Below the pieces are notes generated by a model that was given only the letters and a program-made list of their open reading frames with translations, was not told the DNA's origin and did no database searches. DNA of 58,579 nucleotides, counting the filler, from Dugesia japonica (taxonomy: Eukaryota), in the NCBI GenBank assembly GCA_001938525.1. It is 5 parts of 5 records of this genome, joined end to end, with 100 filler letters (N's around TTAATTAATTAA, not from the genome) between each part and the next. Parts side by side here need not be neighbours in the genome. Positions count along the whole stretch, not along the records: positions 14,297 to 23,294 come from MQRL01355837.1; 4 more parts are not named here. One strand, 5' to 3'. Made by a program: the position numbers and the translations under genes. This document shows positions 4,555 to 29,685 of this stretch, in pieces. Within the stretch, counting starts at the first letter, position 1; each line of letters opens with the position of its first letter.

Positions 4555-4805
4555 TTTATGAAATATTATCATTATATATAACTATTATCCTTATATATTA
4601 TCTCGAGAAAAATACATTTTTCAATAGTAGTCCTTTAGACAATGTATAGGTAATTTTTTATTCTCAGTCGAATGGTAACAAAATATCATTATATTATTAT
4701 ATATAACTATTGTCATTATATATTATCTCGTAAAGGAAGCATTTTTTAAATAGTAATCATTTAGACAGTGTATAGGTAACTTTCTATTCTGAGTTGAATC
4801 GTATA
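4555..4805. repeat. Two diverged tandem copies of a ~120-bp unit
   Basis: tatataactatt...tattatctcg...tttagaca.tgtataggtaa.ttt.tattct occurs at ~4575-4670 and ~4700-4795. Confidence 0.6.
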
Positions 4806-5976: not shown

Positions 5977-6339
5977 CCTGTACACCACTATCTCTCTGCT
6001 TACATTTACAAATCTTATCAATTTTAGACATACAGTTATTAAAAAATAAAAAGTTGTTAATGAAATGTAAAAGTTGTTAATGAAATGTAAAAGGTTGTTA
6101 TTGGGGTAAAAAAACTTGTATTTTAGTAATATTTGTTATAAGAAAATAAATATGCAGAATTTAAACCAATAGAAATGGATTAAAATAATTAATAATGTAC
6201 ATTAATTCTATTTAACATATATTTATAGAGTTATGCATTAATATAAATGAAAATTTCAAAAATATATATAAAAATTGCAACAAATATATACGAAAATTTC
6301 AATAATATATATAAAATGTTAAAACATATAAATTAGGAA

Positions 6340-8620
6340 TATACAAAATGTAGCTAGTAGACAAAAAAAGTGGTAATGTTGGACTTGTCTTAAAAAATGA
6401 AATATGAATCAAGTTTTCGTTCGTCGCATTAGAGGTTTATGTCAACAGGTTAGATGTAAACAGTGTTGAAATGGTGGACATAGTTCACAGGAGTACTACG
6501 CCAATTTGAAAAGGAAAAGAACAACTGAGAAATTTGTGACTACTAAAAGGACAGGGAACCGATATATACAAATATATGTGATTGCAGATGCAGAGGTTAC
6601 TACAAACGATAGATATCAAGAAGTATATGAAAGTGATTTCGGATGGCAGTACCCAAAAGACATGCTCCACCAGTAGAGGAGTTGGTTGGAGTTATACATT
6701 GTTAAATGAATTCATTGATTATACTTAAGAGGTTGGAAAGTGATATGATATTGGGAAAGGTACAGAAAAAGTATACAAGTTCTTTAAAAGAGGAAATTTC
6801 GGGTATAATAGTAAAATAGAATGGATTTGAACAATTGAAGCAGGAAAGAAAAAAATTATTTCTGACCACAGTATTACGGTATCAAGTCAGGAGCTCAAAT
6901 TAACGTTATGAGTTTGAGTTGCTTTAGTAAATTACGAGATCTACATTTAGAAATGAGTGATGAAATATTGCGTTGTGAAATAATAGTACACTTGAAATTG
7001 ATGGGAAAGTTAGAACCGGAGTGATAATTGGTGAAGTTTGCAAAGAGATTACTTTCTTAGTTGCTGAAAGAGTGACACCAGATCTGATAGGTGATGCAGA
7101 GAATTTTTAGATACCAGCTTATGCAAAAGGTCGATAGAAAACGGATGAAAAAGTCGAAAATTACATTTGTAATATTGAAGCGAAATTTGGATAGTGATTA
7201 ATTAGAGCCTTAAATACTTTGAAGATTAAAGAAGATCAATGGTTATTAAAAATAATTGGAAGTAAAGAAGATGCTTTATTGCCAGAAAAATGGGATGTAG
7301 GATGCACACATGACAAGACACAAAATAATCACAAGTGGTGAACCAATCAATTAAAAACCTTACAGGCAGCCAATTAATTTAGAATCTAAAATTGAAGAAG
7401 CTAACCAAATACTTTTTGAAAATAATATTATCCTGAAATGCAACTCTCCATAGAATACGCTACTGATTTGTGTTTGGAAAAAGAAAAAGAAGGACATAAA
7501 AATATGTTTGGATTTTGGACAATTGAATGGAGTAACAAAAAAACAAGCCTTTCCGATGCCTAATGTCGATGAAATGTTGGACAAGTTAGATGGAGCCAAA
7601 TATTTCAGTTCAATAGATTTGTGAAATGCATACTATCAAGTAGAGCTCGAAAAAGAATCTCAAGAAAAAATGGCGTTTTCAACAAAGCACGGACAATATT
7701 GTTTTAATAGAATGCCATTTGGCATTGCAGCGGCACCGGGGACATTTCAAGAGATGATGACAAAAGTGGAAGTCGGAATCAAGAGGGCCTTGGTTTATCT
7801 TGATGACATCCTGATATTTACGAACAATAAAGATCAACACTATGAAGTAAATGAAAAATTATTGACGGAAATAATGAAGGCTCGTCCAAAACTAATTCCA
7901 GAAAAATGTCAGTTTCTTCAAAGCGAAATCAGATTTCTTGGACACATAATTAGAAGAGAGGGTGTCAGAACTGATCTGTCAAAAATAGAAGTAATAAGAA
8001 CATTTGGCAAACCTAATTGTGGGAAAAAGATACGAAGTTTCTTAGGAATATGTAATTATTACAGAAAGTTTGTAGAAAGTTTAAGAAAGTCAAAGATCTT
8101 AGAGTAATTGTCTAGTAGACCAAGCAACAAGAAATTAGAATGGACAGGTGAAATAAACTATACTTGCATAAATTGCAAGATAGACCAAGTGGTACGGTAT
8201 CGTTTCAAGGAAATAAACATAAATGTCTATTAGATACAGTGGGTAGAATTAACGTTATAAGTTTGAGTTTTTTTTAATAAATTTCGAGAAGTACATTCAG
8301 AAATGATTGATGAAAGATTGCGGTGTGCAAACGATAGTAAACTTAAATTGTTGGGAAAGTTAGAACTGGAGTAACAATTGATGAAGTTTGCAAAGATGTT
8401 TCTTTCTTAGTTGCAGAAAGAGTGATACCAGATCTGATTAGAAGAAAACTTGGGTTTTTACGGAAAGTAGACGATAAAACTGACGATATAGTCGAAAATG
8501 AAATTTGTAATACTGAAGCAAAATTTGGGAGAAAAATAAAAAAGAAAAGCGACTGAAAATACTCTAAAGATTAAAGACAATGAACAGTTTTTGAAAAGAA
8601 ATTGAAAATAAAGGATGGTT
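6340..8620 (+). mobile_element. Degenerate Ty3/Gypsy LTR retrotransposon (gag knuckle, protease, RT), followed by a second protease-region fragment
   Basis: FNRMPFGIAAAPGTFQ, VYLDDILIF, KCQF..FLGH and RSFLGICNYYRKF (7670-8107). Protease-region sequence is repeated at ~8170-8620. Many stops. Confidence 0.92.
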
Positions 8621-8684
8621 GTTTCAAGTCGAAAAATTTTAGTCGTCCACTGTAGAATCAATTGTTAATTGATGACCATTTCTT

Positions 8685-9085
8685 GCATTACAAAACCTTA
8701 TGATGGGCCATTTCAAATCATTAAAACCCTTTATTGTAACCAAAATGAAATGGGTATCATTAAAACCGTAATGAGTCGATGGAACTTTCTAGAATGATTA
8801 CAAAACCTTTTGGTGGACCATTTAAGATCCTTTAGAATTTAATCATATTAGATTAGGCATTGTTTGAATCGAAATAAGACAGTAAATAGTTTTAGAATGA
8901 CTACAAGCTCCATGGTGAACCATTCAAATTCTCGAAAACTCTTCAATTTATATGTCAATATGGATATGATTGGAACTGCTGATAACCATATCTAACATGA
9001 TCACAAAACCTTATAGTGAACTATTCCAAATCATGAAAANTTTTTAAAATATAAATAAATCAAAATGGGTATCGTTCAAATCGTA
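8685..9085. repeat. Degenerate tandem repeat, ~105-110 bp unit, about 4 copies
   Basis: The motif t.acaaaacctt.t.gtg.accatt..aaatc recurs near 8689, 8799, 8902 and 9002. Confidence 0.5.
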
Positions 9086-9479
9086 TTTAAATGACAAACA
9101 TTTGTATATAGTTTCAACACAATCAGATCTACACATATAATAATACACATGATATCGCACACTTTTATAACACTACATATAAACCTAAATTTCTATCGTT
9201 TTGCATTTCAAAATGCAAGGAAATATTATAACAACGTATAATATTTCGACAATTAATACTAATTGAGGAAAAACACTTTTTCTTTCAATATCATGACTTT
9301 CTTCAAGAAATCTATTATGTATATTCTTCAAATAATTATTATTTATTAAGATAAACAGAAGCCTTTTATTCCCGGGGTTAAAAGAGTAAGCCATAAAATG
9401 TGTTTAGAATCTGTAACCGATAAATTTTTGAATGGAAAATTAATGGTGAGTTAAGTACTCACGGGTCATTAAATTCGAT

Positions 9480-10030
9480 TGAAAACTTAAAATGCAGTTT
9501 ATCCAATAAGAATCAAAGAAATTGTAGCTTATGCAATCAGGAAAGATAGTATTTCATTTCATAAAGAACAAATCTTCGGCAATCGTCAATTACCCAACCT
9601 TATTCTGGTAAAGTTTTAAAGTGGAAACTATTGTAATGGAAGCTGTAAAACATCTAGTTCAAAATTCAATCATTTAAATGTCCAATTTATAACTATATCA
9701 AAAAACAGTAATTATCGCGAAGCATATACTCAAGACTTTGAAAATGATAATTATAGCATATTATATATGTAATCTATAATTAAAAATATGGGATATCTAA
9801 GAAAGAATATGACTTGTGGAATAACACTTGATGAATTCAAAAACAAATATTCATTCTTTACGTTTTGCTTGCTCCAGATTTTGATATTAATCAGAATCAA
9901 TTGCCCCAACAAGGAAATTCGAGATTTGATATCAAGTTTGGGTACGCTTTACTTAAACCAGCATATGTAATTATTTATGGAGTATTTAGAAGTGAAATCT
10001 AAGTTACTTCCAAATTATTAATATTAGTTT
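9480..10030 (+). pseudogene. Polinton/Maverick major capsid protein, C-terminal half
   Basis: Manual translation across frameshifts: QIFGNRQLPNLILV..FNHLNVQFITI..QDFENDNY..CGITLDEFKNKYSFFTF.LAPDFD..QQGNSRFDIKFGYALLKPAYVIIYGVFRSEI. This fits the Polinton MCP C-terminal pattern (F.FDL.PD..G.LRL..KF..AL...VIVY). Confidence 0.75.
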
Positions 10031-10139
10031 AAACAATCTTGTTGTCATGACTTATCAAAATAAAGTAAGTTTTGACAAGAATATATAAATTTCTTTAATT
10101 AGTTCAATTCAAATTAATAAAATTGGAATTAAATGACTT

Positions 10140-10276
10140 GGATCAAAGTTTTTCGGTGAGTATCCATTGGACAAGTTTCTATTCATACCAGTTAATAAAG
10201 TCCTAATTCTCAATACTCAATCATCATATCTCGGTGGAGAACATTGGTTAGCAGTTTACAACAAGCCAGAAAATAT
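10140..10276 (+). pseudogene. Polinton/adenovirus-type cysteine protease (adenain) fragment
   Basis: GSKFFGEYPLDK..LILNTQSSYLGGEHWLAVYNKPENILVFDSF carries the catalytic His (GEHW) and FDSF motifs. It lies directly after the capsid fragment and is truncated before the catalytic Cys. Confidence 0.8.
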
Positions 10277-10885
10277 ACTTGTATTTGATTCATTTGTTTT
10301 TAATATCCGTAAATTGGGGTCTCGCATCTCTCAAAAATGTTGAAGTCAATTGTGTACAACAACAATTCGTTATCAAGAATGGTTGACAACTACTTGTGAA
10401 AAGCCCTGCTAATTATGGTTGAAATCCCAACATTATGTATAATTTTTGTATGAAAAATAAATGTATTTCTACGTAATTATTGTTTTGTATTTACGTATTT
10501 GTATGTATAATTTAATAACTGTTATTTTTATGTTAACTTTATAATTATATTTTACAATTGCAATTATTGCGAGAATAATTATTGGACATAACCATTGATC
10601 GTTTTATAGAATTCATTTCATTTTGGTTTTTTTATTTATATTGAATAACAATTCCAATTGTTGTCCGAATTGTTATGCAATATCAATAAAAAAAACTAAA
10701 ATTTTGATCAAAGCTTTTATATTAAATGAATTTTATAATTATAATTTATATAATTATAATGATAATTTGAGAATTTATTTATTGTTACTAACATAATTTT
10801 TTATCGAAGTTAACTAATTTTTAATAAAGTTCCTTTTTTAAATTAATTTATTATTAATTAATGATGTAATAATTTTGTAAAAAGT

Positions 10886-10922
10886 CAATTCCTGACGAAG
10901 ACAAGGTCGAAATATCGAATTG
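10886..10922 (+). ncRNA. Minimal type I hammerhead ribozyme (Penelope/retrozyme type), intact core
   Basis: caattc-CTGACGA-a-gac(aag)gtc-GAAA-TATC-gaattg: stem I caattc/gaattg, 3-bp stem II, palindromic ATAT stem III. Predicted cleavage after C10916. Confidence 0.8.
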
Positions 10923-13389
10923 TTATCAATAAAAAACAAAAAATTTTGATCGAAGATTTTATTTTATTTTAAATGAATTATGTAATAATTTATTTAATTT
11001 CATAATTAATTTTTATACTTTTTTACATTAATAATAAGTTATAATATTTAAATTATGATACTTATAGCTATTGATGCAAATAATAACTTATGTTATATTT
11101 TATAATTCCAATAATTTTTATAATAATATTGATAATATATCTAGTTTTTTTATTTCTTTTCATATTAATAATACTTTTTACTTATATTTTTTAATGATAA
11201 TATCAATTTTATCCTANATTACCTTTACTATCACTGTTAATTTGATATATTATTATAATAATAAAAATGAAACTGTTTATAAAATATCTAATTTTAATGA
11301 TAATAACCACTAATTTGGTGAAACTGTTAAATGATGCTGGTAATATTTTAAATAATAAACAAAAAAAAATAAATAAATAATATTTTTTAGAATTTTAATA
11401 ATATTTTTTTTAATAGTGATAATTTTCAATTGTTATTCTAATAATAATANNNNNNNNNNNNNNNNNNNNNNNNNNNNNNNNNNNNNNNNNNNNNNNNNNT
11501 AATAATAATACAATTCCCTTTTTAAATTAATTTATTTAATTTGTTAATTAACTTTAAAATAATAATTAATACACAATTTTAAACTGTTGAATACATTTTA
11601 TTAATTATAATTTTTAAAAACATTGGTTATATTTAGAATATATTTTTTAATATTTTGATATTTTTTTATATTTTCATGATAACATTTATTTTACACATAG
11701 TATTTAACAACTGCCAAGCTGAATCTTGGCTATGCTGCAAATCTGTGTCTAGTTCACCCTTGGCAAGCAAAAAGGACAAAGTATTAATTTTGTACGATAA
11801 CACGTGAACCGATGAACTGATGGTTCAGTGCGCTAGCTTCCCCTAACTTATATTATTAAATTTTATTTTTTTAAATTAAAAAAAATATATTTTCTGTTTT
11901 TATTTGAATAAAAGTAATGTAGTTTATGAAGATTATAATTGAAATTTTATAAATTGAAAAAAGTTTTAAAACAATTCAATTTAATTAAAATTTGATTAAA
12001 ATTATCCAATAAAGTTTTAATGAAATACGTAAAACTTTTCTAATATCGTTTAAATCTATCAAAAAGTTATATTCCTGAAAAGTAATATATCGTCGAAAAT
12101 TCGAATATCTATAAAACAACAATTGAATTTTATCGAACCTATTATTTCAATGAAATCTCAAATGTGATCAATGGTTAAGTTCAACAATTATTTACGCAAT
12201 AATTGTAATTGGATAAGTAATTATTTTAAATATCCAATATTTTTTTATACACACATTACACATTAATTACCATGCATTCTGATTAGTGCATACTTAAGCA
12301 CTAAAAAATTTAGACCTGATGAAGCGATACAATGCAGTACTATCTAAATACTTGNNNNNNNNNNNNNNNNNNNNNNNNNNNNNNNNNNNNNNNNNNNNNN
12401 NNNNNNNNNNNNNNNNNNNNNNNNNNNNNNNNNNNNNNNNNNNNAAGTTTGGTTCTAAACATTTAATAAATTTTGTCCTAACATGTTTCATAACATCTTG
12501 TAAGGATACTGAAGACATACAGAAGCCAATTTTACTCACAGTCACAATAAATGAAATATTGGGAATAGATTTTTTGATTTCCAGTAAGATTGTGTTAAAT
12601 GTTTTTTTTATTTTTATTTTTATTATTATTATTATTTATCATGAACTATTCTTTACATAACCTTTCAATTTAAATTTTTATAATTTTTTATTAGACAGAG
12701 TAATGAATAAAATTCAAATATTGATTAGAATTTGATGTCTATCACTGTAAAAATACTATAATTAGATACTTTCTATTTTATTTCCAAAGCAATTTTTTAA
12801 AAAAATTAAAATATTGTGTGTTGAATCAAAGTGGTTAATTTTGTGAACAAGTTATTATAGGTTATATTAAAACAATGTTCGTTTTTAAATTTTAAATATT
12901 TCAAAGTAAAATTGTGTTCAATTAGTTGAATAGATAAGCGTAANNNNNNNNNNNNNNNNNNNNNNNNNNNNNNNNNNNNNNNNNNNNNNNNNNTATTTAT
13001 CATGAACTATTCTTTACATAACCTTTCAATTTAAATTTTTATAATTTTTTATTAGACAGAGTAATGATTAAAATTCAAATATTGATTAGAATTTGATGTC
13101 TATCACTGTAAAAATACTATAATTAGATACTTTCTTTTTTATTTCCAAAGCAATTTTTTAAAAAAATTAAAATATTTTGTGTTGAATCAAAGTGGTTAAT
13201 TTTGTGAACAAGTTATTATAGGCTATATTAAAACAATGTTCGTTTTTAAATTTTAAATATTTCAAAGTAAAATTGTGCTCAATTAGTTGAATAGATAAGC
13301 GTAACTTTAAATCTAAGTTTTATAAAATAATTTCAGATTATTATCGAATGCACAAAANGTAAAATTTATTTCTTCATTGAAACTCCTAG

Positions 13390-13640
13390 ACGTAATAACG
13401 TGAATCCTAGTGAGGTTTATGAGGTCATTCATAAAGCATGGCCGCAGGAATATATAATTGTTATTCAAATTAGAAGACTTGTGAGACAATTTCGTACTGG
13501 AGAAAGACAAACATTTCAGCACCAGAAAGGAAGTGGAAGAAGAAAAAGCAAAGAATTTTTACTTAACATTGATTATGTTAAAATATGTATAGAAGAATAT
13601 GGGGTACCAATACTTTCAAATATTAGAACGGTATGAAATG
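13390..13640 (+). mobile_element. Mariner-like transposase N-terminal HTH fragment
   Basis: PSEVYEVIHKAW..QIRRLVRQFRTGE..QHQKGSGRRKS resembles the mariner F..G....D..RSGRP region. Confidence 0.5.
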
Positions 13641-14049
13641 ATAAATACTGATAGATATATTTAGTTTCTTCAAAATCTCATTAATTTTTCTCAAAAAAGA
13701 CATTAAAGTTTTCTCCCACAAAATATGTATCTTATGCATGACAACGCTCGATCACATATTCCTCAAGATTTTTAGACTCTAAAAACGTAAAACTTCTTCA
13801 CCAGAGAAATATTTATGCCAATTATCTTTTTAAAAGATTGAAGAGAAGTCGTACAGATTTTAAACATATTGATGAAAAAGAACAATTCTACATAGTGAGA
13901 TACCAAAATTAACAAATATTCGTATGGATAAATCATCGATGTATCTATTGAAACAATCAAGAAAATTATTGAGTATGGTGCCTGCTATGTATAAAAAAAC
14001 ATTTTACAGCGATTATTTTTTTTATAATACAGATTATATATATATATAT

Positions 14050-14196
14050 AGTAGATGTATAGTAGTGCACTGGAACACCTCCTCCCCCCGAAGGAAAATT
14101 TTTTTTTGGTCATTTTTTTGGACTTTATTTTTGTAGTTTTTAAAATTTGTGCTTGGGCAGTTGACCTTTTTGTTTAAATAACGTACAATTTATTAT
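14050..14196 (+). mobile_element. Polinton-type terminal inverted repeat end
   Basis: AGTAGATGTATAGTAGTGCACTGGAACA. Related ends at ~4986(+), 23720(-), 29685(-) and 54788(-). Confidence 0.45.
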
Positions 14197-14296
14197 NNNN
14201 NNNNNNNNNNNNNNNNNNNNNNNNNNNNNNNNNNNNNNNNTTAATTAATTAANNNNNNNNNNNNNNNNNNNNNNNNNNNNNNNNNNNNNNNNNNNN
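14197..14296. other. Artificial contig linker N44-TTAATTAATTAA-N44
   Basis: Exactly 100 bp with stops in all six frames; four identical copies in the window. Confidence 0.95.
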
Positions 14297-15090
14297 TCTG
14301 AAATAATCAATAAACATTTTCAGAAAAGAAATTCATTCATGATTAAAAAAATCAATAATGATGAATTATTATTGAATTACTTCATAATAATGGGTATTCT
14401 AAATTGTTTATTGACAAATTAGTTTATGAAACTTTGAATAAATTAAATAGTAATTTTTCTCTTGCTGACGTCTCTGTTNNNNNNNNNNNNNNNNNNNNNN
14501 NNNNNNNNNNNNNNNNNNNNNNNNNNNNNNNNNAAACATTTAAATTTTCAATTGAAAATGCTCTTAAGGATATTTTAAATGTAAACGTTGTATCTCCATC
14601 TCATAATGTTATAAATATGTTCAATAATAAATCTATAACTCCTTTAGGCCTGTGCTCTGATCTGGTATATCAATTTAAATGTAATGGTTGTAATACCACA
14701 TACATTAGAGAGACTTCCCATAATCTCTGCACCAGAGTTCTAATAGTAATATTGTTGAGCATCGGAGAAAATGTATAAAATCAATAGGGTTGTCTGATTT
14801 TGAAATCTTGTGTAGTGAATTTAATAATTATTGGGAGAGAGTAATTTGTGAATCTTTGTTGATAAGATTGTTGTTAAATTCTAAAATTAATGTTTAGTTG
14901 ACGGATTCAACATCGCTTTTAAAATTATTTTATCGATTATTTATTGAGATTGCATAATTGAAATTATATAATCATTTAAACTTTATAAATAGTTTGTTTG
15001 AATATTCTTTAATTCCCTGATAATGATGGTAATTCCGTCGAAATTAATTGCAGCAAATAAATAATTTGTTAAATGGCGTTCTTTTATTTT
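14297..15090 (+). mobile_element. Penelope-like element 3' part: GIY-YIG endonuclease and pLTR with a degenerate hammerhead
   Basis: SDLVYQFKCNGCNTTYIRETSHNLCTRV..EH..FEIL..R.ICESLLI is a GIY-YIG pattern. Followed by ctgataa-t-gatgg(taatt)ccgtc-gaaa at 15017-15043. Confidence 0.85.
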
Positions 15091-16379
15091 TATAAAAAGG
15101 GTGGCGATGTTTATTGAGTTTTTAAATAATAAATTAATTTCCAGAATTTTTTAAAAAAAATTCGCATCGATAATTTAATTTCATTAAATTAAAAGGTTCG
15201 ATCAAAATATGGTTTTATTTATTATATTTTATAATTTCTTGCTAGTTGAAATACGATCAATTGTTAAGTCTAACAATTATTCTCTGAATAATAATATAAA
15301 TACTGGTTTGAAATTTTTTTTATAAACATTGATTATTACCTTTAAACTAATCAATAGTACCAAAACGAAGTTATCAATGAATTTTAGTCGGATTTGAAAT
15401 CTGAAGAATTAGTAAATTTCTGTTGTTTATTTCATTTTTTGTGAAAAAATAGGAGTTAGAACAAATTTAAAAAATTATTTATAAGAATAGAGCTGAACAC
15501 AAAATTTGATTTGTTAAATATCAAATGCAAGTAGTAAATACAATAAATTGTGAATCTCTTTTTAATTAGTTGTGAAACGATCTTGAATATGTTTATTAGA
15601 GTTTCATTCAGTAAAACAAAATGTTTACTTTATTATTTAAGGAAGAACTGAGGAAACTCTTGAGGAAACTCCGTTTTTTCCGTTTAATCCTTTTCAAAAA
15701 ATACTAAAACCAGAACAAAAACGAATATTAAAATATTTATTTGAACAAATATCTAAAAATATTTTCTTTCCGTGGCTTTGATAACTGAATCAGCTTATTT
15801 TCTAGCAAATATATCTAATTTTACTGATCAGGACAGTACCTTGCTTTTATACTGCACATGAATCAAATCTTTCACGGCTTATATCTTTTGGTGGCTGTTT
15901 TAGTAACACTTCATTCTTCTGTCAATTTCCTCGGTGACTTTCCTTTCGTCAAAAATTTTGAAAAAATCTCTTATTTCTGGTTTCCTGTTAATTTTGATTT
16001 CAAATTTTAAATTGAAACTAAATAGTTCATGCCTTAGGAAATGTTTAACTTTTATAGAGTGTATTGAAATCATTATAACCTATTAAAATTCATCCTTAAA
16101 AGTATTTAGTATATTTTTATTTGAAAATCTAATTAAATGTATCAATTACAATTATTGCGAGAATAATTGTTGGAAGTAAGCATTGATCGTTTTACAGAAT
16201 TCATTAAAATAAAAGCTTTGATCAAAATTTGTTTTTTTTTTGGTTTTTTTAGATCAGAAAAAAAGATCAGAAAAGACCCTAATAAGAAAAATCAAAAAGA
16301 AAATCAATCGGTGCAACTAGGACCCTACAAAGAAAAAGCGTACCACCTTCCAGAGGGGTATGGTAGGGATCCTAAAATC

Positions 16380-16610
16380 CAACCAATAGGCGACCAGGAA
16401 ATAAAAATAAAACAAAGAATAAAAACTCACCTGGCTCTCTAAAAATAGTTGCCAATCATGGCACTGAAATTCTTAGAAAATTTCAGAAAATTGGTGCTAG
16501 CAACAATAAAATTGGAGAAACACCAGTCTAAAAATACTGGCAAATCTAAAACCCAGTAGTGGTGTACACAAAATCCTATAAAAGGACCCCCAGTTTTACA
16601 GAAAAAACAC
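16380..16610 (+). promoter_or_regulatory. Putative RNA polymerase II promoter (4 CCAAT boxes and a TATA box)
   Basis: CCAAT at 16383 and 16452, ATTGG at 16490 and 16511, TATAAAAG at 16577-16584, and a CACTC initiator-like sequence ~30 nt downstream. Confidence 0.5.
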
Positions 16611-18270
16611 ACTCAAAAAACAACGAAATTCTCATTTACCAAGTTGTGAAACTACGTTCAAACAAGCTACTTTTGCTAGGAAAAGAAACTGTTACGACAA
16701 AACTAGTTACAGAGGTCTCAGTATAAATTTATTAGAAATCAGTGGTAAGGTTCAACGTAAAATATTCATTTGATCAACACTTACATTTCTAGAAAAGAGA
16801 GATAGAAACCGAAGCTCCGCACGTTGCCAAATTAAACTAACCTCAATCCAATTGGGCTCTATACAAATCCTCCAACTCATTGCAGAACTCCCTCATTCAG
16901 TTAATTCTAGTTGTTATTTCCGAATTTTAGGATCATATTTTTCAAGTAATTATTTTTATTAGTTTTGTTTTATGTAAAACGTTATATTTTGAAAATAAAA
17001 TATATATATATATATATATCTATGTGTTATAAAAATAATGAATTATATTTTCATCGATTTGATTTTAATAAAATAATGCTTCTATTTTGATTGAAAGTTA
17101 GAACCTGTTAACCACAACCATATTAGAATAATAGTTATTAAACTAAACTAAGTATAAATAAACGAACCGATAACATTTTTTGGGGTTATTTTTAGACCAT
17201 CGAGTCTTATGCTTTATAATGCCGTTATTAAAATTATAAATGAAGATGCACAGCTAGTATAGAACTAATCGGAAATTTATATCCCAAAAATAACAACATT
17301 ACAACGCACAATAATATTTTTTTTTGCCAACTTATTAATTCTGATTGTCGAACTGAGTAATTATCCATTGAAATTCACGAATCATCAATTATGAAATGAA
17401 TGAACAAATACAGGGCAAATTTATTAAATTCCATAACATTGAGATGAAAAACATATCCATATCCAATCAAATTATAAGTTAGCTCCCATATATAAATTTT
17501 GTGCACGATCCCAATCTCTAATGTTATGCGTTTGGGGTACCATATTAATTCATATATTTGATAATTATTGCACACGTGGATAGAATTGGAATTTTAAGGA
17601 AAACTGGCTATCGAGGAAAATCAATAATTCTGACAACATTAAGTAGTAACTAGGAAAGTGTAGGATTCTCCAAAATCGCCATTGCTACATCGATAAGAAT
17701 TATGATTCAATTATGTCACAAACAACTCTAACATACTTGCATGTCGAGTTTGTATATAACAAAAAGTTAAGCACACACCAACGCAAGATTTTACTAACCT
17801 GATTCAGTCGGTATAATTGTGACCTTGAGAGTAACCAAGGCAATTTAAATTTTGCGGTAAATTCAATGCGCCTAAAATTTTCTTTTGGGATGTAAATCCC
17901 TAAGATTGAATCAAGTAAAACTCACAGATCGTTTTCTCATCAATTAGGTCCAATTCATATGTGACTGGATTCCACCGGTCACTAACAAACCAAGTTCCTT
18001 TTAAACTTACTACATAAATAATAATAATAATATCGGTGATATTAATAAATTGTAGGGATAATAATCAGCGCGGTAATAAATAATAATAGTAATCATGGTA
18101 GTAATAACGATGATATCCACCAACACCACTCCTACTAACAACGATAGTAATAATGCTAATAATAATCATCATATGGTTAATGAACAATACCTACCACAAA
18201 GATAATGATAAAATGTTGGTTGACCACGATAAATCTAAGCATTAGGAACATAATAATAATATTAATTCAG

Positions 18271-18537
18271 TATAATGATGACTTGTTCATCGATTCACCA
18301 TGTCGTCCCATGCTTACGATTTTGTAATTTTGCAGTAACGATTTCGGTCCCGCAATGACGGCTAGATTGAGGAATATGTTAAGATGGATCGCGAAACAAC
18401 GACAAATAGCTAGGAGGAAACAGTTGATTGCCCACCTTCTGACAAATGGGGTGGTGGAACATCCAGATGAAACTGATTAAGCATGTTTTGTTGAGATGTT
18501 CCCACTAAACTATCCGGTAGATTTGGATGCCGATTGA
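18271..18537 (+). pseudogene. Orphan cassette ORF A (88 codons, two internal TAA)
   Basis: GC-richer island after attcag. Reads YNDDLFIDSPCRPMLTIL*FCSNDFGPAMTARLRNMLRWIAKQRQIARRKQLIAHLL..ETD*ACFVEMFPLNYPVDLDAD*. Confidence 0.4.
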
Positions 18538-18645
18538 TTACACTTCTTAACAAAACATTTTCCATTGATTATGATAAATAGAATACTTGTCTTAATATCT
18601 TTTGTTCTTTATTTATAATCGCTAATTTTCTATATTGTTAAGTTA

Positions 18646-18990
18646 ATGGAATATAAGTGGGAGATTTTACAGGATCGTTATACCGGAGAAATCGTCGTCA
18701 AACAATATCACAACCCATATGACCGCAACGCGGGTGATTCCGTTGATTTTTCTGTGCTAACGCCTGAAGAGGCAGAACAGGAACGAAAACAGGCGGCCAT
18801 CGCACGTCAGGCATATTATGATTGGAATGGTCTCGACCGGTCACGCGAAGTGATGCACCGCGTCATGACGGTTGACCCAATAACCAATCACGTCTACACA
18901 CAATGGCGGGAAGGGCCATCTTTGATTCCAATTACCCTCGGACAATTGTCTCAATGCACTCATTTCAGCATTGAGAGAGGAGATAACTAG
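18646..18990 (+). CDS. Orphan cassette ORF B, 114 aa hypothetical protein
   Basis: Intact GC-richer ORF. Branch-like gctaat and acceptor AG at 18641-18642; AATAAA at 19044 followed by a GT-rich tract. Paralogous to ORF C. Confidence 0.65.
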   Translation: MEYKWEILQDRYTGEIVVKQYHNPYDRNAGDSVDFSVLTPEEAEQERKQAAIARQAYYDWNGLDRSREVMHRVMTVDPITNHVYTQWREGPSLIPITLGQLSQCTHFSIERGDN

Positions 18991-19169
18991 AAAGACCCTC
19001 ATTTCTTTGGCATGTGTGTCTCTTTTGTATTGAAAGAAAATCCAATAAATTCTATGTTTTGTTAGTGTTTTCGTTAAGATCCTTGAATTGATTGTATAAT
19101 TTATTTTTTTTGTTTTACTCATTTCTGTTAGCAGCTAATGAAACGTAATTCTCTTGTAGTTTTACGATA

Positions 19170-19586
19170 ATGGAACACATTTGGAACGTGACCATCGACG
19201 TACGGACCGGATTATCAACATTTTGAAAATTCCGGAATCCCCATAATCGTGATGCTGGGGTATTGATCGATAATTCCAATATATCCTCCGAATTGGCCGA
19301 GGAGTATCGTAGTTGGGACGCAGAAGAGCGGGAAGCTTATTACCGATGGCGTGGTCCCATGCAAGACCGCCCATATTATTCTCCGTCTCCTCGCACTGAT
19401 TTTACTTCGCCTCTCTTGCCACGAATTGAACGGGTGTGGACAGAGAGTCCTACGGTGTTCGGGTTAGCCACCGCTCAGCTGCCCCTTTATGAACACCTAT
19501 CCTTTTTCATTCAAAGTAACTTATGGAATGTGCGGGACTCCTTAAGTCAAGTCAATGATGAAAATACGGCACAAGAGAACTCTTGA
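19170..19586 (+). pseudogene. Orphan cassette ORF C, paralogue of ORF B (one stop, one frameshift)
   Basis: MEHIWNVTIDVRTGLSTF*KFRNPHNRDAG/IDNSNISSELAEEYRSWDAEEREAYYRWRG aligns with ORF B. Acceptor ctcttgtag ends at 19159. Confidence 0.65.
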
Positions 19587-19725
19587 TAATTGTAGTGTGT
19601 GTAATATTCGAATTATATTTCATGTTCCTTTCTGATATTGAATTTTGATTAGTATTCTTATTATATCTAATACGTTCTTATTAATATCAATTCATTAAGT
19701 ACAAGTTATATTACTCTTTTTATAG

Positions 19726-20060
19726 TGCATTCATCACTAAACCGTACACCCGCTCCGACTAAAAAAATCTGAGAAGATAGCGAGGACATCGAGATGTCCT
19801 GGAGCCTTTACCGATTGGCCAAGCGACGGTGGGAAGCCGACGTGGCTACCGCAGATGCCAAGGTAAAGCGATATAAAATCAAATGCTCCGCTGTCCGAGA
19901 GGAATTAAGACTTGCGCGAGAACAAGAGCGCGCATGGAAAGCGCAAGTTGAATCCTTTGCCGAGATTATCCGGTCCAGCCATGACCGAGAAAATAAACTG
20001 GTTAAGAAAATCCTCTTATTGAAGGAAAAATCATACGTGGAGTGCCCTTATGATCGATAA
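19726..20060 (+). CDS. Orphan cassette ORF D, basic coiled-coil-like protein
   Basis: Acceptor ctctttttatag|TG at 19725/19726. The frame reads HSSLNRTPAPTKKI*EDSEDIE into MSWSLYRL (ATG 19794); charged helical pattern. AATAAA at 20111. Confidence 0.55.
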
Positions 20061-20231
20061 GGGTACGCAGACCAAAATTCCTTCACGCAATTAATCATGT
20101 AGTTAGTACAAATAAATGTTATTATCCGTNTAATCTCTCTTATCTTTACTTCTAAGTTTGTTAATAATCTGAGAATTAATAATCAGTGTATTATATGTTT
20201 TACAACTCAATTAATTGATTCTCTTTTTCAG

Positions 20232-20614
20232 TGCCTAGGATACACTTTCCTAATAGCTTAAAACGTTGCCATCAATTCCCACGCCGACTCCTCATCGAGC
20301 GACACCTGAAAAAGAAGGCGGATAAAGCCTTGTTGAGACATCTCAAGCAACGAGATCGTTTAATAAAGAAATTAGATTTAGTAATAAAGAAACAAGCTTA
20401 CTTGGCCGCACAAACTAAAGCCCTGGAGGTAGAGAACAAACTTTTGCTGCAACGCAAGGTGGATTTTCTGAAGCAGTACATCGCTGACTTATTACATCAA
20501 TTAGGAAATCCGAATACCACACAATGGGACGATGATGACGACATTGCTGCTTTCAACTTTGTCATCACCTCCCCAGATCAGTGGTTAGACCCTGACGCCT
20601 TGAACCTAATCTAG
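20232..20614 (+). CDS. Orphan cassette ORF E, 127 aa coiled-coil-like protein with an acidic tail and no in-frame ATG
   Basis: Acceptor ctctttttcag|TG CCT AGG. Open for 127 codons with no Met. AATAAA at 20627. Confidence 0.6.
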
Positions 20615-21121
20615 ATGTTGATTATTAATAAATGTTTAATTAATAGAAATGATTTAATTCTCTTAATAATATTAAATGTTTTAATTAATAGAAATGGTTT
20701 AATTCTCTCAAATATTACTAGGGAAAATATAGAACCCGAATAAAAGGTTTATTGGTGAGCACTTTCCATCAAGAGAAAAGTCAACCGCAATAAACTGAAA
20801 ACATAACCATAGGGGCAGTAGGGTAAATTCTTGAAAGGATTCTCCTGAGGGCTGTTTTTCCCCGGCCACTTTTCCTAACTCAGGTAGAACCCCAACAAAT
20901 GTATAAATATTAAAATATTAAATTATAAATATTTTTGAATTTCAAAGGCAAAAGTTATTTTAAATTCATTGTTTTATTGAAATATTGACATGGTTTCATT
21001 TAAATTTAAAATTTATTTTCTAAAAGTTAACTTTACCATTGATCTGTATATTAAACAAATATTTTGAAAAACAAACATTTTCAATTGCAAAGATCAAAAC
21101 GATGTTCTTCTTTTTAAATAG

Positions 21122-21160
21122 ATAGTTCAATATTTCGGCTATGCTTTCTTTAGGAACTAT
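21122..21160 (-). ncRNA. Degenerate minimal hammerhead ribozyme
   Basis: Minus strand: atagttc-CTAAAGA-a-agc(ata)gcc-GAAA-TATT-gaactat. Perfect 7-bp stem I, but the core has G5>A. Confidence 0.55.
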
Positions 21161-21489
21161 TACTCAATTCATTCTGGTTATAAACGTTTAAATAGAAACA
21201 CAATTTACATTAATCTAGTTAAAATTAATTTTCATTGGTCATTAATTATAATATTAAATTTCTAATTTATTGAACATATTCTCGGAAATATGGTGCAAAC
21301 CATTAAAAAATTTCATTTTAGAAATTTTAATTTTCAAATTTTCCTTTTAAAATATATTTTTTTAAAAATTAACTTTTCCACTGATCTGTATGGGTTGATT
21401 TGTTGGAATATTACGAATATTTATTTGTCTATCTTTTAACAAAAACGAAATCAACTTAAAATTGAATAAATTTATTATGAAGACTTGAG

Positions 21490-21930: not shown

Positions 21931-22386
21931 TTTTAGTCAAAATCTTCGTTTAAAATACGACACTACTTTCTTGCCATTTTAATACGAATCAAAGTTTTTA
22001 TTAGTATAATTTATTACATTTTTAAAAATAGTTTTCTCTGGATGAATGGTTTATAGTTTTCGCTTTTATTTAAAAATTTATACGAAGTCAATGATCAATT
22101 TTAATTATGATTTCATAAATATTCTTAACATTTAAGAATCGCGATTCGCCTGTGATTTCTCAAACTTTTTTGGAATTTAAATCGTTGCAGCACTGCCAGG
22201 TATGTGATGAAGCTTTCACATATTTCTGAAAAACACTTTACAAGATAATAAGTTTAGCAAGAGTATAGAAAAAATGTTGAAAATAAAATAAAATAATTAT
22301 AGAATCGAAATTTAATATGCCTTGAGCAAAATGATTTTAAAAAGTTGTAGATTTTATTAAATAAAATATACGATTCCCATCTTCAG

Positions 22387-23259
22387 GTAATCGAATGGAA
22401 TGAAACTCATAAAATGATGAAAGTAAAAATTCCTACTGTGGTAAATACGAATGAAGCACAACATTGTACCCAAACTGGGTATCTTTCTAGACCAACACAC
22501 CGTAATACATCGTGGGATTCTGCGAAATTTGAAGTTTGTGGTCATAGTTGGATTCATATTGGTGAAAATAATTGGGGAGTCAGTGTGTTGAAGGAAGCTA
22601 TTTTCGGTTCATCTGTACTGGATGGGACTGTCTATTTATCTCTGTAAATACTAATGACATTTTGCTATAATAATATTATTGATGTGTTATTAGCCTGCGA
22701 TCGCCTAATAGTCCTGATGCCACGGCTGACAAGAAACACATTCCTCATGTTTTCAATTATTCAATTTTTCCTTATGATTCATCGTTAACAAATAATAGAT
22801 TTGGCACAATTTCTCGTCTTGCCATTCAGTATAATTGGCTGTGCGCTTTGAATACGAATCTATCTGACTGTTTCTCGACGCATATTCATCAATCATCTTT
22901 ACACAATATCAAACTATTTCCAATTTCAATTGTCGAGCCTAACAATGGAGAACTATCAATCGATTGGGTTAAACCAGTAAATTAATATTTATATAATAAG
23001 TATTGTTTGAATATTTGGATTTTAGACGTGTGATAATCCTCGCCAATTCCTATTGCGACTACATGAGATTTCCGGAGGAAGGTATGTTGTAAAGTTAGCA
23101 AGTTCTGTAGCGATAAAGCACGTCTCTATTACAAATATATTGGAAGAATGTAAAGAGGATACAAATAATGATCGTGGCGATATAAATTTTACCAATAATG
23201 CGATTCGTTTATTTATACTGCCATTCGCACTTATTTCTATCGTTGTTGAATTCACTTAA
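22387..23259 (+). CDS. MAN2C1: Cytosolic alpha-mannosidase 2C1 (GH38), last three exons join(22387..22643,22694..22976,23026..23259)
   Basis: WNETHKMMKVKIP..RPTHRNTSWDSAKFEVCGH..LSL|LRSPNSPDATAD..IDWVKP|..LLRLHEISGG. GT-AG introns of 50 and 49 nt keep the frame. Confidence 0.9.
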
Positions 23260-23394: not shown

Positions 23395-23720
23395 TAAAAA
23401 AAAGATTAAAAAAATTGATCCGATCAAAAATTTTTTGATCCCAAAAATTTGATCCGATCAAAAAAAAAATTTATCCCAAAAATCTGATCTGATCAAAAAA
23501 AAATTTGATCCCAAAAATCTGATCTGATCAAAAAAAAATTTGATCCNNNNNNNNNNNNNNNNNNNNNNNNNNNNNNNNNNNNNNNNNNNNNNNNNNNNNN
23601 NNNNNNNNNNNNNNNNNNNNNNNNNNNNNNNNNNNNNNNNNNNNNNCCCCCCCCCCTCCTGGGCGGGGGGGTCCGCTCAGCGCCATGCATGTTGTGACCG
23701 TGCGCTACTATCCCCCTACT
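23395..23720 (-). mobile_element. Polinton-type terminus with GATC-rich subrepeats, nested against the left arm of the next element
   Basis: The minus strand starts AGTAGGGGGATAGTAGCGCACGG at 23720, followed by a GC hairpin and (gatc.gatcaaaaaaatttgatcc) tandem repeats. Confidence 0.5.
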
Positions 23721-26700
23721 ATTGTTTAAAGGACTTATGTTGTGTGATGGATGGTTTTCGCTTAAAGGGTAGTGGCTCCACGCCACAGTCTTATGAGTTT
23801 TATGATGCGAGTTTTTTGCGAGGTTTAAGGTTTGTAAAGGATTATTGGATTTGAATGGGATATATATTGTTGGAAAGGTAATGTGATGGATAAGGTTTTG
23901 TATGTTGAATGTGCTTTGTTTATTTGTTTAAAGGGCTTTAATTTGATTAGTTGATTTTTGTAAGTAGTGTAAGTGTGTTAAAAACATTTTTCGGGACAGA
24001 GAGAGTGGTATGTATTGAAAGAGAATTAATTATCAGATTTTTTAATAATTATTCGAAATGTTTTTGTTAGGAGCGTATGACGTCATAATCTTTTCATAAT
24101 ATATTAATTAAAAATGCTGTTATTTGCTTAAATTGATGAATTTATTGAAAGTAATGGCATTTTTGAGTATTTTTAACTGGGTAATGAGTGTTTTCATATT
24201 TTTCGAATCGGGGGGTAATTCAAAATTTTATTTTTGCATTGGAAATAAAAATGTTTTTGAGCAGACATTATATTTTGCATGGTATGGGGCAGTCTTAATA
24301 TTTTGTATAAGCAGTCTCTTTATTTAGCATGGTATGGGCAGTCTTGATATTTCGCATGGTATAGTTGTCTCTATATTTTGCATAGAATGGGACAGACTTG
24401 ATATTTTTCAGTTAATGGGTCAGTCTTGATATTTTTGTAAGATATTGAATAGTCTTGATTGAAGCATTATTGATAATTTTTCTTTATATTTTACTTTAGA
24501 TAGGTCAGTTTTGACATTATTGCAGGATATTGGGTAGTCTTGATACTTTTAAGAGATTGAGGCATTATTGATGACTTTTTTTTATATTTTGCTTTAGATG
24601 GGACAGTCTAAAATTTATTGACATGTGATTTTTAGTGTATGTGTTTTGCATTCTCATGGCATCTGCATTTATTAAAAAAAATCATTAAAAATTCAAAATG
24701 TTGAGTTTTAAAAACTTTTTTTGGTTGGAAATTTATTAAAATTCTCAGACGCATGATTTTCAGTGTGTGTGTTGCATTCTTGTGGTATCTGAGTTGCATA
24801 CCTAATTCATTTATTAATAAAAATCCCCAGGCACGTGATTTTCAGTGTATGTGTGTTGCATTCTCATGTCATCCGAGTTGCATACCTATTGCATTTATTA
24901 AAAAAATCAACATGGCGACTATGTAGAGTTTTATTTAGAGTTTATGAGTATATTATTTACATATTAGCCGTGTAATATAAGGTTTACAAGTGTAATAAAT
25001 CTTTTTTGTGTCTATTATTTATAAAGTAATTGTGTATTATAGGTTTTTTGAGTCAATTATTTGCATAGTTACCTTGTATTATTTACATAGCAAACATGAA
25101 ATATAAGGCTTAAGTACATTATTTGTATAGCAAATTTGTATTATTTACATATCATCCATGTTATACTAAAATTATGAGTGTATTATTACAAAGTAACCCT
25201 GTATAATAGAGTTTATGAGTATATTATTTTCATAGTTACCTTGTATTATTTACATAGCAACCCTATATTATAGCTTATATGAGTATATTATATACATTTT
25301 AACCATGTAATATAAGGTCATCATGCACAATGCATGCTCGCGTCATGTTCATGCCAATTTTAGATAACAAATAAGTAATAAGTCTATATAAAAACTTATT
25401 TTTATGATTGTATATGGTTAATGAGTGTATTATTTGCATAATTAATTTGTATTATTTAAATAGCAAGTAATTTTTATTTACATAGTAACCCTGAAATATA
25501 AGGTTTATGAAATATAAGGCTTATGAGGAAATTATATTACAAACAAAACGTGTAATATAAGGTTTATGAAGGTACGTTTTACAAATAAAAAATGTAATAT
25601 ACAGTTTATGAGAATATAATTTACATATAAGTCGTGTAATATAAGGTTTCCAAATGTATTATTTGCTTAAGTACCATGTAATATTTAAATAACAACCGTT
25701 TAATATATGATTTTTGTGTGTTTTATTTACATACTAACCGTGTATTATAGGGTTTATAAGTCTGTTATATACATAGTTACCTTGTATAATTTACATAGCA
25801 ACGATGTATTATAATGTTTATGAGTGTTTTAATACATATTAACCCGGTAATATAATGTTTACGAGTATATTGTTTGCTTAGGTATCATGTAGTATTTATA
25901 TAGCAGCCGTTTAATATATGGTTTTTGTAAGTATTAGTTGCATAGTTAGCTTGTATTATTTACATAGTAACCATTTATTATAAGGCTTATTAGTGTATTA
26001 TTTACATATTAACCGTGTAATATTAGGCTCACGGGTATATTATTTACAAAACAACCTTTTAATATATAGTTCTTGTGTGTATTATTTACATATTAACTCT
26101 GTATTATAGGGTTTATGAGTATATTATTTTCATAATAACTGTGTAATATCTGGTTTATGAATGCATTATTTGCATAGTTGATTTATATTATTTAAATGAG
26201 AAAGGTTTAATATAAGATTTGAGTGTGGAAGATTCTTATATATAACTTATAAGTAATAATTTACCTTGTGTGTTGCGCAAATATCAAATTTAAAAGTAAA
26301 TTAATTTAATAAATTAAATAAATAAAGAGAATTCAAAAAGAAATCATGTATTATTAATTAAACAAAACAAAAAAACCACAATATACATAAAAAACATTAA
26401 GCCTTCCCAACTTGTCCAATAAAAAATTTTTCTGGTGTTGTATTTGAAAAGTCTACCGATAGTTCAATGGAATCGAGATCCACTGGAACATTAGGTAATC
26501 CTTTAATATAATTATCTATATTATCTATAAAGAAATTAGATATCATAGCTATACTATCCTATATCTCATAAGGTTGTATTAGAGATTGAATTACAGATAC
26601 ATCANTTTATATTTCAGTGTGTTCTCTTGATAAGCAAGATTNAATCGTGGGATGATTCAATGCATACGTTTGTAAATCCTTTTCTTTTAAAAAGTTCATA

Positions 26701-29685
26701 GCGTCTTCTTTACCATCAAAACTAAGTAATTTACGTTGAAGATCTTTAAATATAGGTAATTTAATGGGACGACAACCGATAGCAATAATTTCTTCCCAAT
26801 CGACAAGAATATCTTCTTTTCTAAAATAGTTCACTTCACGTTCCAAATCTTGAGCATTAACACCACAGAAATGATGTAGATCAAATTGACGATTTAAGGA
26901 TTTAACCATCATACTATTTTTGTGTTGATGTATCATTCAAAGTGCTGATAGTCTTCGTCAGATCGTTCCTGATGTGCATAAAAATAATTAGCTAGTTCTG
27001 GTACAAGATGTATTATAGTTTTACATTTGTTCATGAATATTTGATATGGAATCGAAAACCTAAAGTTTCGGTTTCTACCAAATGTTACTATTCGTCTAGC
27101 TGTAATATTATCTAAATAGATGTTATAATATATATAAAAAAAAAGTAATAATATTTACTTTCTTGAGAATTTTGTGAAGCCATTTTAAAATTATAAGAAA
27201 TAATAATGAAATTCAATATATGTATTCAAAATAAAAAAACCACAACGTAATATATTAATTATTTGAAATATATATATCTAAATTTAAATTGATATTTTTT
27301 GTACTTGAATTGTATAAGGTTTGCCTTTGCGTTGCTAATTTTCTTAAGTTTTCAATCAAATTTTATAAATCTGAAGTAATGTTATTCAGATATCCTTAAA
27401 AATTCAAATTTTAGAGACCAAGCATCACTATCTTTCCGGTTGAGAACACTTTTACACATATAGGGTCATATTTTTACAAGTCATAGAGCTGGAAATAACT
27501 TTGGTTTAAACCAACAGTTGACTATTCTTGATAATTTTTACAAATTTATTGAAACTCTCATATTTAAAAAAATTGCTAATAACTGTAATTGTAAATTTTT
27601 TACATTATAGGGTTCAAATCATGGGGTTCCAATAGTTTCTTACAACTCCTTATTTTACAGTTTCCTGATCTGAGGCCAATAATTGTAAAACTATCACTTT
27701 TGACTTTAAATTGACATGACTTGTCTGTAAGAAAGATCATTTTCTTTGTTACTACCTACAGCACTTCATTGCTGTAATTAATATTGGTTATCTTAATTAA
27801 TGAAGTAAGAGTAAACATTGGGTTTTTTATGATATTAATTTAATGTATTCGTTAAAACAAATATATCAAATGTAATAAATTAACTAAAACTAAGATAATC
27901 AAATGATAATCAAATTATTCTATGTAAAGAATACCTCATAGGTGTTATATTGCACAGTTTCTTTGAAACAAATACATATTAACTAATCAAATAATACACT
28001 CATACACCATAAGTTAGAAGGTTGCTATGTAAATAATATACTCATAAACCCTATTATACAGGGTTAATTTAATAATGATAATACAATAATGATCCTTATA
28101 ATACATATTATAATCCTTATAATCCTATATTACAATTTTACTATGTAAAAAGTACCTTCATAAACCTTATATTACACGTTTGTTATGTAAAATAATTTCC
28201 TCATAAGCCTTATATTTCATAAACCTTATATTTCAGGGTTACTATGTAAATAATACAAGGTAACTTTGCAAATAAATCATGTTTGCTATTTAAATAATAC
28301 AAATTAATTATGCAAATAATACACTCATTAACCATATACAATCATAAAAATATTTTCGTATAAGTTTTTATATAGACTTATTACTTATTTGTTATCTAAA
28401 ATTGGCATGAACATGACGCGAGCATGCATTGTACATGATGACCTTATATTACATGGTTAAAATGTAACTAATATACTCATAAACCTTACAATTTATTAAT
28501 ACACTCCTTATAATATATGGTTGCTATGCAACTAATGTACTCATAAACCTTATATTTTATGGTTGCTCTGTAAATAATACAAGGTAACTATGCAAATAAT
28601 AGACTCAAAAACCCTATAATACACAGTCACTATGTAAACAATACACACAGAAAAAAGATATTTTTAAAATTCAACATAGCCGTCATTTTGGTTTTTTTAA
28701 AACTCAACATAACCGCCAATTTGAATTTTTATTGATTTTTTTAATAAATGCAATTGATATGCAACTCAGATGCCATGAGAATGCAACACACATACACTGA
28801 AAATCACATACATACAAAAACTTTTGAATATCTCTCCAAATTTTTTTACATTTCCGGCCATAAAATAACAAGACTCTCCTCTTCCCGGTTTAAAAAATAT
28901 GAAAACACAATCCCCATTCACAAATACTCAAAAAATACTCAAAAATACATCAAATACTCAAAAATGCCATTACTTTCAATAAAATCATCAATTTAAGCAA
29001 ATTAAAGCATTTTTAATTAAAATATTATGAACAGATTATGACGTCATACACTCCCAACAGAAAAATTTCAAATAATTATAAAAAAAAATCTGATAATTAA
29101 TTCTCTTTCAATACATTCCACTCTTTAGCCCTTTAAATAAATAAACAAAGCACATTCGACATACAAAACCTTCTCCATCACATTACCTTTCCAACAACAT
29201 ATATCCCATTCAAATCCAATAACCCTCTACAAACATTAAATCTCGCAATAAACACGCCACGATAACTCATACGACTGTGTCGTGGAGCCACTACTCTTTA
29301 AGCGAAAACCATTCATCACACAACATAAGTCCTTTAAACAATGTATAGACCAAAGTTTTGTCCAACAACAAAAAAAATCTTAAAAACTCCAAAATAATTA
29401 TTTCCAAAATCTCCAGCGCCTCTTCGATTCACAAACCATTCTTTCACACACAACCACACAAAAACTCAACTTGACCTACTTTTTTCAAAAGCTCTAAAAA
29501 AAACCAAACACACACAAATTTTAAAATTTAAAAATACACACACACAGCCACAGAATCAAAAAAACCAGATCTGATCAAAAAATAATTTGATCCGATTAAA
29601 AGACTTTTGTTCCTAAAAATCTTAGAAAAAAAACTAACTAAAAAATCACAGCACACTTGTGTCGAAGAGCCACTATCTACCTACT
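23721..29685. mobile_element. Non-autonomous element with kb-long inverted arms (Polinton/foldback-like) around a ~1.7-kb core
   Basis: Collinear reverse-complement matches: 23721-23940/29128-29342, 24020-24200/28955-29122, 24835-24900/28740-28808, 25300-25560/28160-28460. The arms contain many tattatttacatag/taatataaggtttatga subrepeats. Right terminus AGTAGGTAGATAGTGGC (minus strand, 29685). Confidence 0.8.
26397..27183 (-). pseudogene. Orphan ~240-codon gene with a 47-nt intron (27112-27158), disrupted
   Basis: ATG GCT TCA..GAA A|gtaaat..atttag|AT AAT gives MASQNSQENNITARRIVTFGRNRNFRFSIPYQIF... A frameshift near 26940 leads into MIHQHK..EHTEI; further disruptions follow, ending FFIGQVGKA* at 26397. 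Confidence 0.55.

Follow-up and report, generated by a model that had tools for sequence, protein, structure and literature searches.

A predicted spliced leader and array of small alternative terminal exons in a high-copy, candidate long terminal repeat unit of the planarian Dugesia japonica

Background

Burro elements (GYPSM1), Ty3/Gypsy retroelements of dugesiid planarians, are among the closest described systems to the subject of this report, a 4.6-kb unit at positions 16250-20897 of a 58,579-nucleotide (nt) stretch of Dugesia japonica DNA ("the window", five joined parts of assembly GCA_001938525.1, the unit lying in record MQRL01355837.1). Excerpts of PMC6431247 describe Burro elements as longer than 30 kb, with an internal region of up to 25 kb, thousands of copies, accessory open reading frames (ORFs) and env homology; long terminal repeats (LTRs) of several kb are implied by these lengths, and the same excerpts, with others from PMC11410931, place decayed copies in an AT-rich host genome full of transposable elements. 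The D. japonica unit has the appearance of one promoter followed by a two-exon leader without ATG and by five small ORF islands, and leader-to-alternative-acceptor splicing, for which the sequence offers several signals, is probable. As to what carries this array, the 4.6 kb are tentatively explained as one decaying member of a high-copy repeat family, most likely the solo LTR, or an LTR-linked accessory module, of a giant retroelement of Gypsy type (Burro-like).

The predicted leader, the ORF islands and proposed splice-made start codons

The unit begins with a predicted U3-like module (16250-16606, + strand), delimited by its sequence and by read depth in run X4 (see below), that presumably acts as the promoter. 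It contains CCAAT at 16383 and 16452, ATTGG at 16490 and 16511, and TATAAAAG at 16577; a sequence-only reading that preceded this analysis spoke of four CCAAT boxes, and all four words are there, although two of them are the reverse ATTGG. Four such words are found together in 20 of 5034 200-nt windows, which make up three clusters, one of them within ORF B. Upstream of the CCAAT boxes there is a stable hairpin at 16309-16384 (z -3.15; 1 of 200 shuffles; one of five segments folded). Two predicted ATG-free leader exons follow on the + strand: exon 1 at 16607-16744, whose start site is approximate, with a donor at 16745, and exon 2 at 16793-16945, with A as its last base and a donor at 16946. 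The predicted GT-AG intron between them (16745-16792) has 48 nt and is comparable in size to three host introns of the window (42, ~49 and ~50 nt); this intron and both donors are where they were first read. ATG is absent throughout 16600-16971, which is uncommon: of 1917 segments of 291 nt in the window, 27 lack ATG, and the mononucleotide-shuffle P is 0.011.

Downstream on the same strand are the islands A to E, with 40-48% GC, separated by spacers of 82-139 nt with 21-26% GC. Island A (18271-18615, 40% GC) is weak, with 115 codons, three stops and no clear start in this copy. ORF B (18646-18990) is intact and encodes 114 amino acids (aa), its own ATG standing 4 nt past the acceptor at 18642, and ORF C (19170-19586), a paralogue of B with 138 codons and a single stop at codon 19, has its own ATG 11 nt past the acceptor at 19159. 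Exon D (19726-20102; 125 codons) is coiled-coil-like, starts with TG in frame and has stops at codons 16 and 112; exon E (20232-20614) likewise starts with TG in frame and is intact, with 127 codons and no internal Met. The five GC-richer islands lie where originally described, with AT-rich spacers between them, but only B and E are fully open and A is doubtful. An AG acceptor does precede each island, as had been claimed, but by a crude pyrimidine score of acceptor strength the ranks among 186 AGs are 3 for E, 4 for D and 12 for C, and as low as 29 for B and 45 for A; the CTCTT tract noted ahead of three acceptors was seen again before C, D and E. AATAAA is found 3' of B (19044), D (20111) and E (20627), and A and C are without the canonical signal.

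The final A of leader exon 2 and the initial TG of exons D and E would together make an ATG in the ORF frame, whereas the exon-1 donor joined to D or E would read GTG. The frame of E is without any Met and the first ATG of D itself lies 69 nt in, features that a splice-made ATG would explain. TG follows 12 of the 192 strong YAG acceptors on both strands of the window (6% for each exon), and the two longest frames among those 12 are D and E; a post hoc estimate that allows for frame, donor base and the choice of two islands out of five puts chance coincidence at ~1 in 1000. The in-frame A|TG junctions are good sequence evidence, and the best that we have, for a leader joined to alternative exons. 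The common leader with alternative terminal exons, as initially proposed, gains from these junctions and from the conserved Met of B, C and the outside protein P0005 (below), but no spliced read was found for it. A flatworm trans-spliced leader ending in AUG was considered and rejected; it would place D and E out of frame.

In the proposed mechanism RNA polymerase II would start near 16607 from the CCAAT/TATA module, the 48-nt intron would be removed, and the donor at 16946 would pick one acceptor among those of A to E. Cleavage after the chosen exon would then give an mRNA with one ORF and one protein of 110-140 aa, and the D and E proteins would be obtainable only from correctly spliced RNA.

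Protein families of the array

ORFs B and C are 30% identical over 112 residues (E 2e-16) and are paralogues; island A was compared as a further member and rejected. A B+C profile had three matches at E <= 0.001 among 1.84 billion protein representatives. One of these, P0005 (94 aa, E 2e-15; a singleton from a 512-bp contig), is a true relative with the same starting Met, and the other two, P0006 and P0007, were discarded as chance matches of long repeat-rich proteins at the threshold. A profile of B, C and P0005 found P0005 as the sole match among 242 candidates, all of near length. Word-index searches of near-length proteins gave no homologue of B and none of E among 10 candidates, the ESM Atlas held no match for B or P0005, tblastn of B in phages had no match, and scans of viral and metagenome contigs found no relative. 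Nothing in Pfam, PHROG or NCBIfam was above cut-off for A to E or for the antisense ORF described below, and the first impression that the proteins resemble nothing familiar holds, no known family or fold having been matched.

The ORFs are judged to be genuine genes, and the predicted B and C proteins are a new small-protein family. The structural model of B has a beta-hairpin and a helix, and B and C are likely a family of this fold; at a mean predicted local distance difference test (pLDDT) of 62, the B model had 0 Foldseek matches at E <= 0.001 in PDB and BFVD, the best VIA Z being 3.0. The model of E is one 75-residue helix (residues 18-92), D has a weak coiled-coil Pfam similarity below cut-off, and the two cannot be aligned to each other (E 1.1). 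The products are likely accessory host-interaction factors, and D and E, as coiled coils, might form dimers with helices of host proteins. Because a Burro accessory domain is reported to support planarian regeneration (as cited in a part of PMC13465017), new accessory families, if carried by such elements, would be testable candidates for host manipulation.

A high-copy family with apparently private breaks in this copy

Four of 24 sequencing runs were compared (X4, X5, X6 and X9), with 6-25% of each RNA run covered; X4 is without a library record and was treated as DNA-like since intron and flanks are covered. Runs X1-X3, left out of the comparison, contain 6-8% of the sequence words. The summed contig depth in X4 gives a ranking and not a copy number. 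Contigs identical to the window have a depth of 14-19. Summed depth is 64,000-113,000 in the promoter-end bins (the higher bin takes in the flank repeat) and ~50,000-76,000 at 16503-16552, and the bins of the 3' end have 55,000-66,000, so that both ends exceed the identical contigs by a factor of thousands. Island bins have 1,200-15,700, apart from the bin closing D with 79,000, and the leader and intron at 16635-17876 have 140-600. Promoter and 3' modules are accordingly deepest, and ORF depth is 10-100 times intron depth.

Contigs of X4 keep the A-B, B-C and D-E order across differing spacers (joints 18539-18623, 18906-19154 and 20077/20105-20226), which shows gene order being kept while spacers diverge. 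At the stop of C, 18 contigs with nearly all the depth carry another letter, and one contig differs from D by an indel near 20044; the breaks of C and D look private to this copy. In the 40 of 1046 rows considered, ten near-unanimous differences lie within the B to E frames, every one at codon position 1 or 2 (P 0.017), as expected if the other copies are constrained while this one decays; the limited set of rows, and the omission of row 20090, a third position past the D break, count against this result. Within the window a second copy of the element was not found. The unit almost certainly belongs to a multi-copy mobile element, and its first description as a decaying piece of one is upheld.

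The ends of the unit and the case for a long terminal repeat

A 3' terminal module (20615-20897, + strand), which resembles the R (terminally redundant) and U5 parts of an LTR, has AATAAA at 20739 and 20789 and a very high-copy motif near 20843-20851, and it ends in CCAACA at 20897, a CA-type right end at which GC falls from 46% to 15% and to which X4 has weak joints at 20896/20898 (sides of 21-24 letters). The left flank (16143-16249) is the end of an unrelated, very high-copy repeat similar to miniature inverted-repeat transposable elements and is not part of the element; loose ends number in the hundreds ahead of 16143 and again behind 16238-16241, the repeat has other copies elsewhere in the window, and the element is fused to it near 16250. 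The flanks of this copy resemble neither a primer-binding site nor a polypurine tract. A hairpin occluding the poly(A) signal at 20739 was proposed and is unsupported (z 0.39), and an Rfam scan of 15900-21300 returned no hammerhead ribozyme and two chance miRNA matches only. On balance the identity of the unit as an LTR is somewhat favoured. The alternative named earlier, an LTR several kb long from a giant LTR retroelement, now fits the ends and the depth profile best.

If the unit is an LTR, the direction of its array needs explaining. An array antisense to the packaged RNA of the element, which is a possibility that we rate as doubtful, would explain how the introns, and likewise the poly(A) sites inside the array, come through reverse transcription and would put the minus-strand ORF on the sense strand of the element; alternatively the array could lie within a giant U3 in the manner of sag of mouse mammary tumour virus (MMTV). 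Either placement is favoured over the same direction because a same-direction packaged RNA would tend to lose its introns and to stop at internal poly(A) sites.

The minus-strand ORF lies in the long intron (17237-18190) and is decayed, with 318 codons and 8 stops; the other five frames have 24-32 stops (shuffle P 0.0007 with ends chosen post hoc, and P 0.045 on the fixed ends 17200-18260). With stops read as X, its residues 1-25, 42-63 and 291-314 form hydrophobic segments; it contains ten Cys and three N-glycosylation motifs and is predicted to be a decayed membrane protein; it had no Pfam, PDB or viral-contig match.

The three RNA runs matched 87 (X5), 2259 (X6) and 209 (X9) reads, mostly from the flanking repeats; 97-99% of these reads run into unlike sequence, and little or no transcription of the unit is seen in these samples. 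Since Gypsy elements are PIWI-silenced in planarians, according to a portion of PMC8532177, the near-zero RNA would fit such silencing in this planarian host.

A number of observations weigh against an LTR that carries alternative exons. RNA depth is zero on the bin 16635-16841 in all three runs and at most ~4 on the islands, and of the 15 joints considered, out of 90, none has an RNA read; with coverage near zero splicing is neither shown nor refuted, and no use of the poly(A) signals was seen in RNA. The promoter and poly(A) words are at chance level taken alone: the window has 10 instances of TATAAAAG, which the sequence-only reading correctly placed at 16577, and AATAAA, equally well placed there after B, D and E, is found in 459 of 1462 AT-rich 100-nt windows, a rate of 31% to be set beside its presence 3' of three of the five islands. 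By stop count island A does not differ significantly from shuffles (P 0.57). Depth in the 3' module is uneven, e.g. 198 at 20805 and 266,805 at 20843. There is no clean 5' TG, and no candidate start exceeds 10 of 15 matches with the right end, though the left end may be truncated; there is no clean target duplication, the best TG...CA placement, at 16230/20897, giving 3 of 4 bases with the left end uncertain; and the two flanks are different repeats. Moreover, if the TATA at 16577 is the genomic promoter, R would be ~4 kb, and an R of over 200 nt already counts as long in retroviruses (PMC12789967, in part). Finally, from a phase-1 GTA donor at 19516 C could be joined to D in frame.

Competing explanations

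An integrated DNA virus or Polinton-like remnant with the same scheme of leader and alternative exons is unlikely, and survives best among the competitors. For a DNA element introns and internal poly(A) sites would presumably be free of cost, the layout resembles the adenoviral late unit as outlined in a section of PMC5429599, and the window does hold a relic of a protein-primed DNA polymerase at 51450-52940 (PF03175). That relic is 30 kb off, however, with host genes between, and the right end of the unit is CA-type. No terminal inverted repeat was found between the ends (P 0.43; the left end may be truncated), A to E and the antisense ORF gave no match above cut-off to pPolB, integrase, capsid or protease, and viral contigs held no relative. 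An adenovirus- or Polinton-type identity is accordingly not supported, no hallmark gene of either being found in the unit.

A composite or non-autonomous element, in which promoter end, ORF array and 3' end would be separate high-copy modules brought together by nesting, with an inner unit at 17173-20902 that has a 15-nt inverted repeat at its ends, appears slightly less probable still. It would make sense of the very uneven depth between modules and of a 14/15 inverted match between 17173-17187 and 20888-20902 (P 0.012) with a 3-nt ATA on both sides, as well as of an 8-nt duplication that flanks 16143-20896. But several ends and several placements were tried, so that both matches are near chance; the bin with 17173 is among the shallowest (143), and not a high-copy end; and the splice-made ATGs need the leader, which falls outside the inner unit. 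The segment 17176-17199, directly beyond the antisense ORF, resembles the left junction at 16233-16256 (P 0.048) and the inverted right end (P 0.012), and could be the trace of a former terminus, either nested or duplicated.

It is improbable that C, D and E, perhaps with more of the islands, are consecutive coding exons of one transposon-borne gene. Besides the donor of C already mentioned, there is a GT in D at 20063, the phase of which is set by the break near 20044, and both D and E are coiled coils. Yet the islands have about one GTA per 100 nt, B is without a late donor of the phase needed by C, and the TG at the start of both D and E (6% each) would be left unexplained; B, C and P0005 share a starting Met, and the stops of B, D and E are each followed by AATAAA. 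A cluster of ordinary host genes, or signals that arose by chance in AT-rich DNA, would account for TATA and AATAAA at chance level but is largely refuted, and very improbable, in view of the high-copy signal, the private decay of this copy, the near-zero RNA, and the paralogy of B and C with a homologue outside. The Burro-like LTR or LTR-linked module is thus retained as the best explanation.

Neighbouring sequence in the window

The window is AT-rich (15-41% GC per kb) and contains relics of Gypsy reverse transcriptase (RT)/RNase H, mariner and Polinton-type polymerase; its low GC, introns of 42-50 nt and mix of transposable elements would suit a planarian host. Five decayed Gypsy-type RT/RNase H copies of one family, 63-86% alike, are seen at 7300-8400, 29640-30450, 38000-39100, 45660-46950 and 55180-57180; no link was found between these copies and the unit. 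The Polinton-type protein-primed DNA polymerase relic as a whole spans 50562-53442 (+; PF03175, PF02945), broken by a stop and by N runs, and a further piece lies at 49263-49796. A short ORF at 10137-10343 (+) resembles by eye a fragment of a Polinton/adenovirus-type cysteine protease and has no Pfam match. A mariner transposase relic (39593-40567, -) has helix-turn-helix matches in Pfam, and an R2-like non-LTR relic (592-2330, +) was seen by eye and has no Pfam match. From 23700 to 29350 there is a foldback-like element with long inverted arms of 42/64-nt tandem units, inside which decayed minus-strand ORF pieces (26400-27150) have no Pfam match.

Two host genes are represented. C-terminal exons of a MAN2C1/Ams1-like cytosolic alpha-mannosidase (PF07748, PF17677) lie at 22351-23259 (+) with introns of ~50 nt, and a Dopey-family gene (PF04118) is represented by its first two exons at 35136-34567 (-), with a 42-nt intron. 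Among 136 short ORFs of the window there was no upstream MAN2C1 exon and no further Dopey exon.

Comparison with known systems

If the favoured explanation is true, an LTR would be a gene-array expression cassette, more than a promoter and terminator, and solo LTRs, usually deemed inert leftovers, could keep producing several proteins. One may go further, with a good deal less confidence, and imagine the LTR as a portable mini-operon, with an internal promoter, a two-exon leader and an expandable set of small terminal exons, some with splice-made starts, running antisense to the packaged RNA so that its introns outlast reverse transcription; its solo copies, in their thousands, would then seed the host with self-sufficient cassettes expressing new families of proteins. 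With an ATG split by an intron, D and E would escape gene callers, which may explain the near-absence of the family from databases (one relative in 1.84 billion). A literature search found, in the portions of the sources available, no account of a Gypsy LTR that contains an ORF array; the primary Burro papers (Grohme 2018, Lee 2026), outside its scope, may describe LTR transcripts.

Compared with published descriptions, the unit is like Burro in its 4.6-kb size, high copy number and CA end. Unlike Burro, for which the excerpts of PMC6431247 and PMC11410931 mention no ORF array within the LTR, it has such an array, and no BIR, MATH, BCL2 or env domain was detected in it. The Terminon/Athena group of Penelope-like elements, again from part of PMC6431247, shares accessory ORF arrays with coiled-coil and transmembrane products; the unit differs in having no hammerhead ribozyme in the Rfam scan, no telomeric-repeat end and no reverse transcriptase of its own.

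With the adenovirus major late and E3 units, as sketched in an extract of PMC5429599, the predicted scheme has in common one promoter, a spliced non-coding leader and an acceptor ahead of each ORF. The unit is unlike adenovirus in containing no adenoviral gene and no inverted termini, and in being a 4.6-kb sequence integrated in many copies whose leader would donate the A of a start codon. Accessory coding inside an LTR has its precedents in sag/rem of MMTV and nef of human immunodeficiency virus type 1 (HIV-1), which lie in U3, are reached by splicing and are accompanied by extra U3 promoters (PMC12789967, in part). But where MMTV and HIV-1 have one ORF in this position, the planarian unit would have four or five together with an antisense ORF, and its own two-exon leader inside the repeat.

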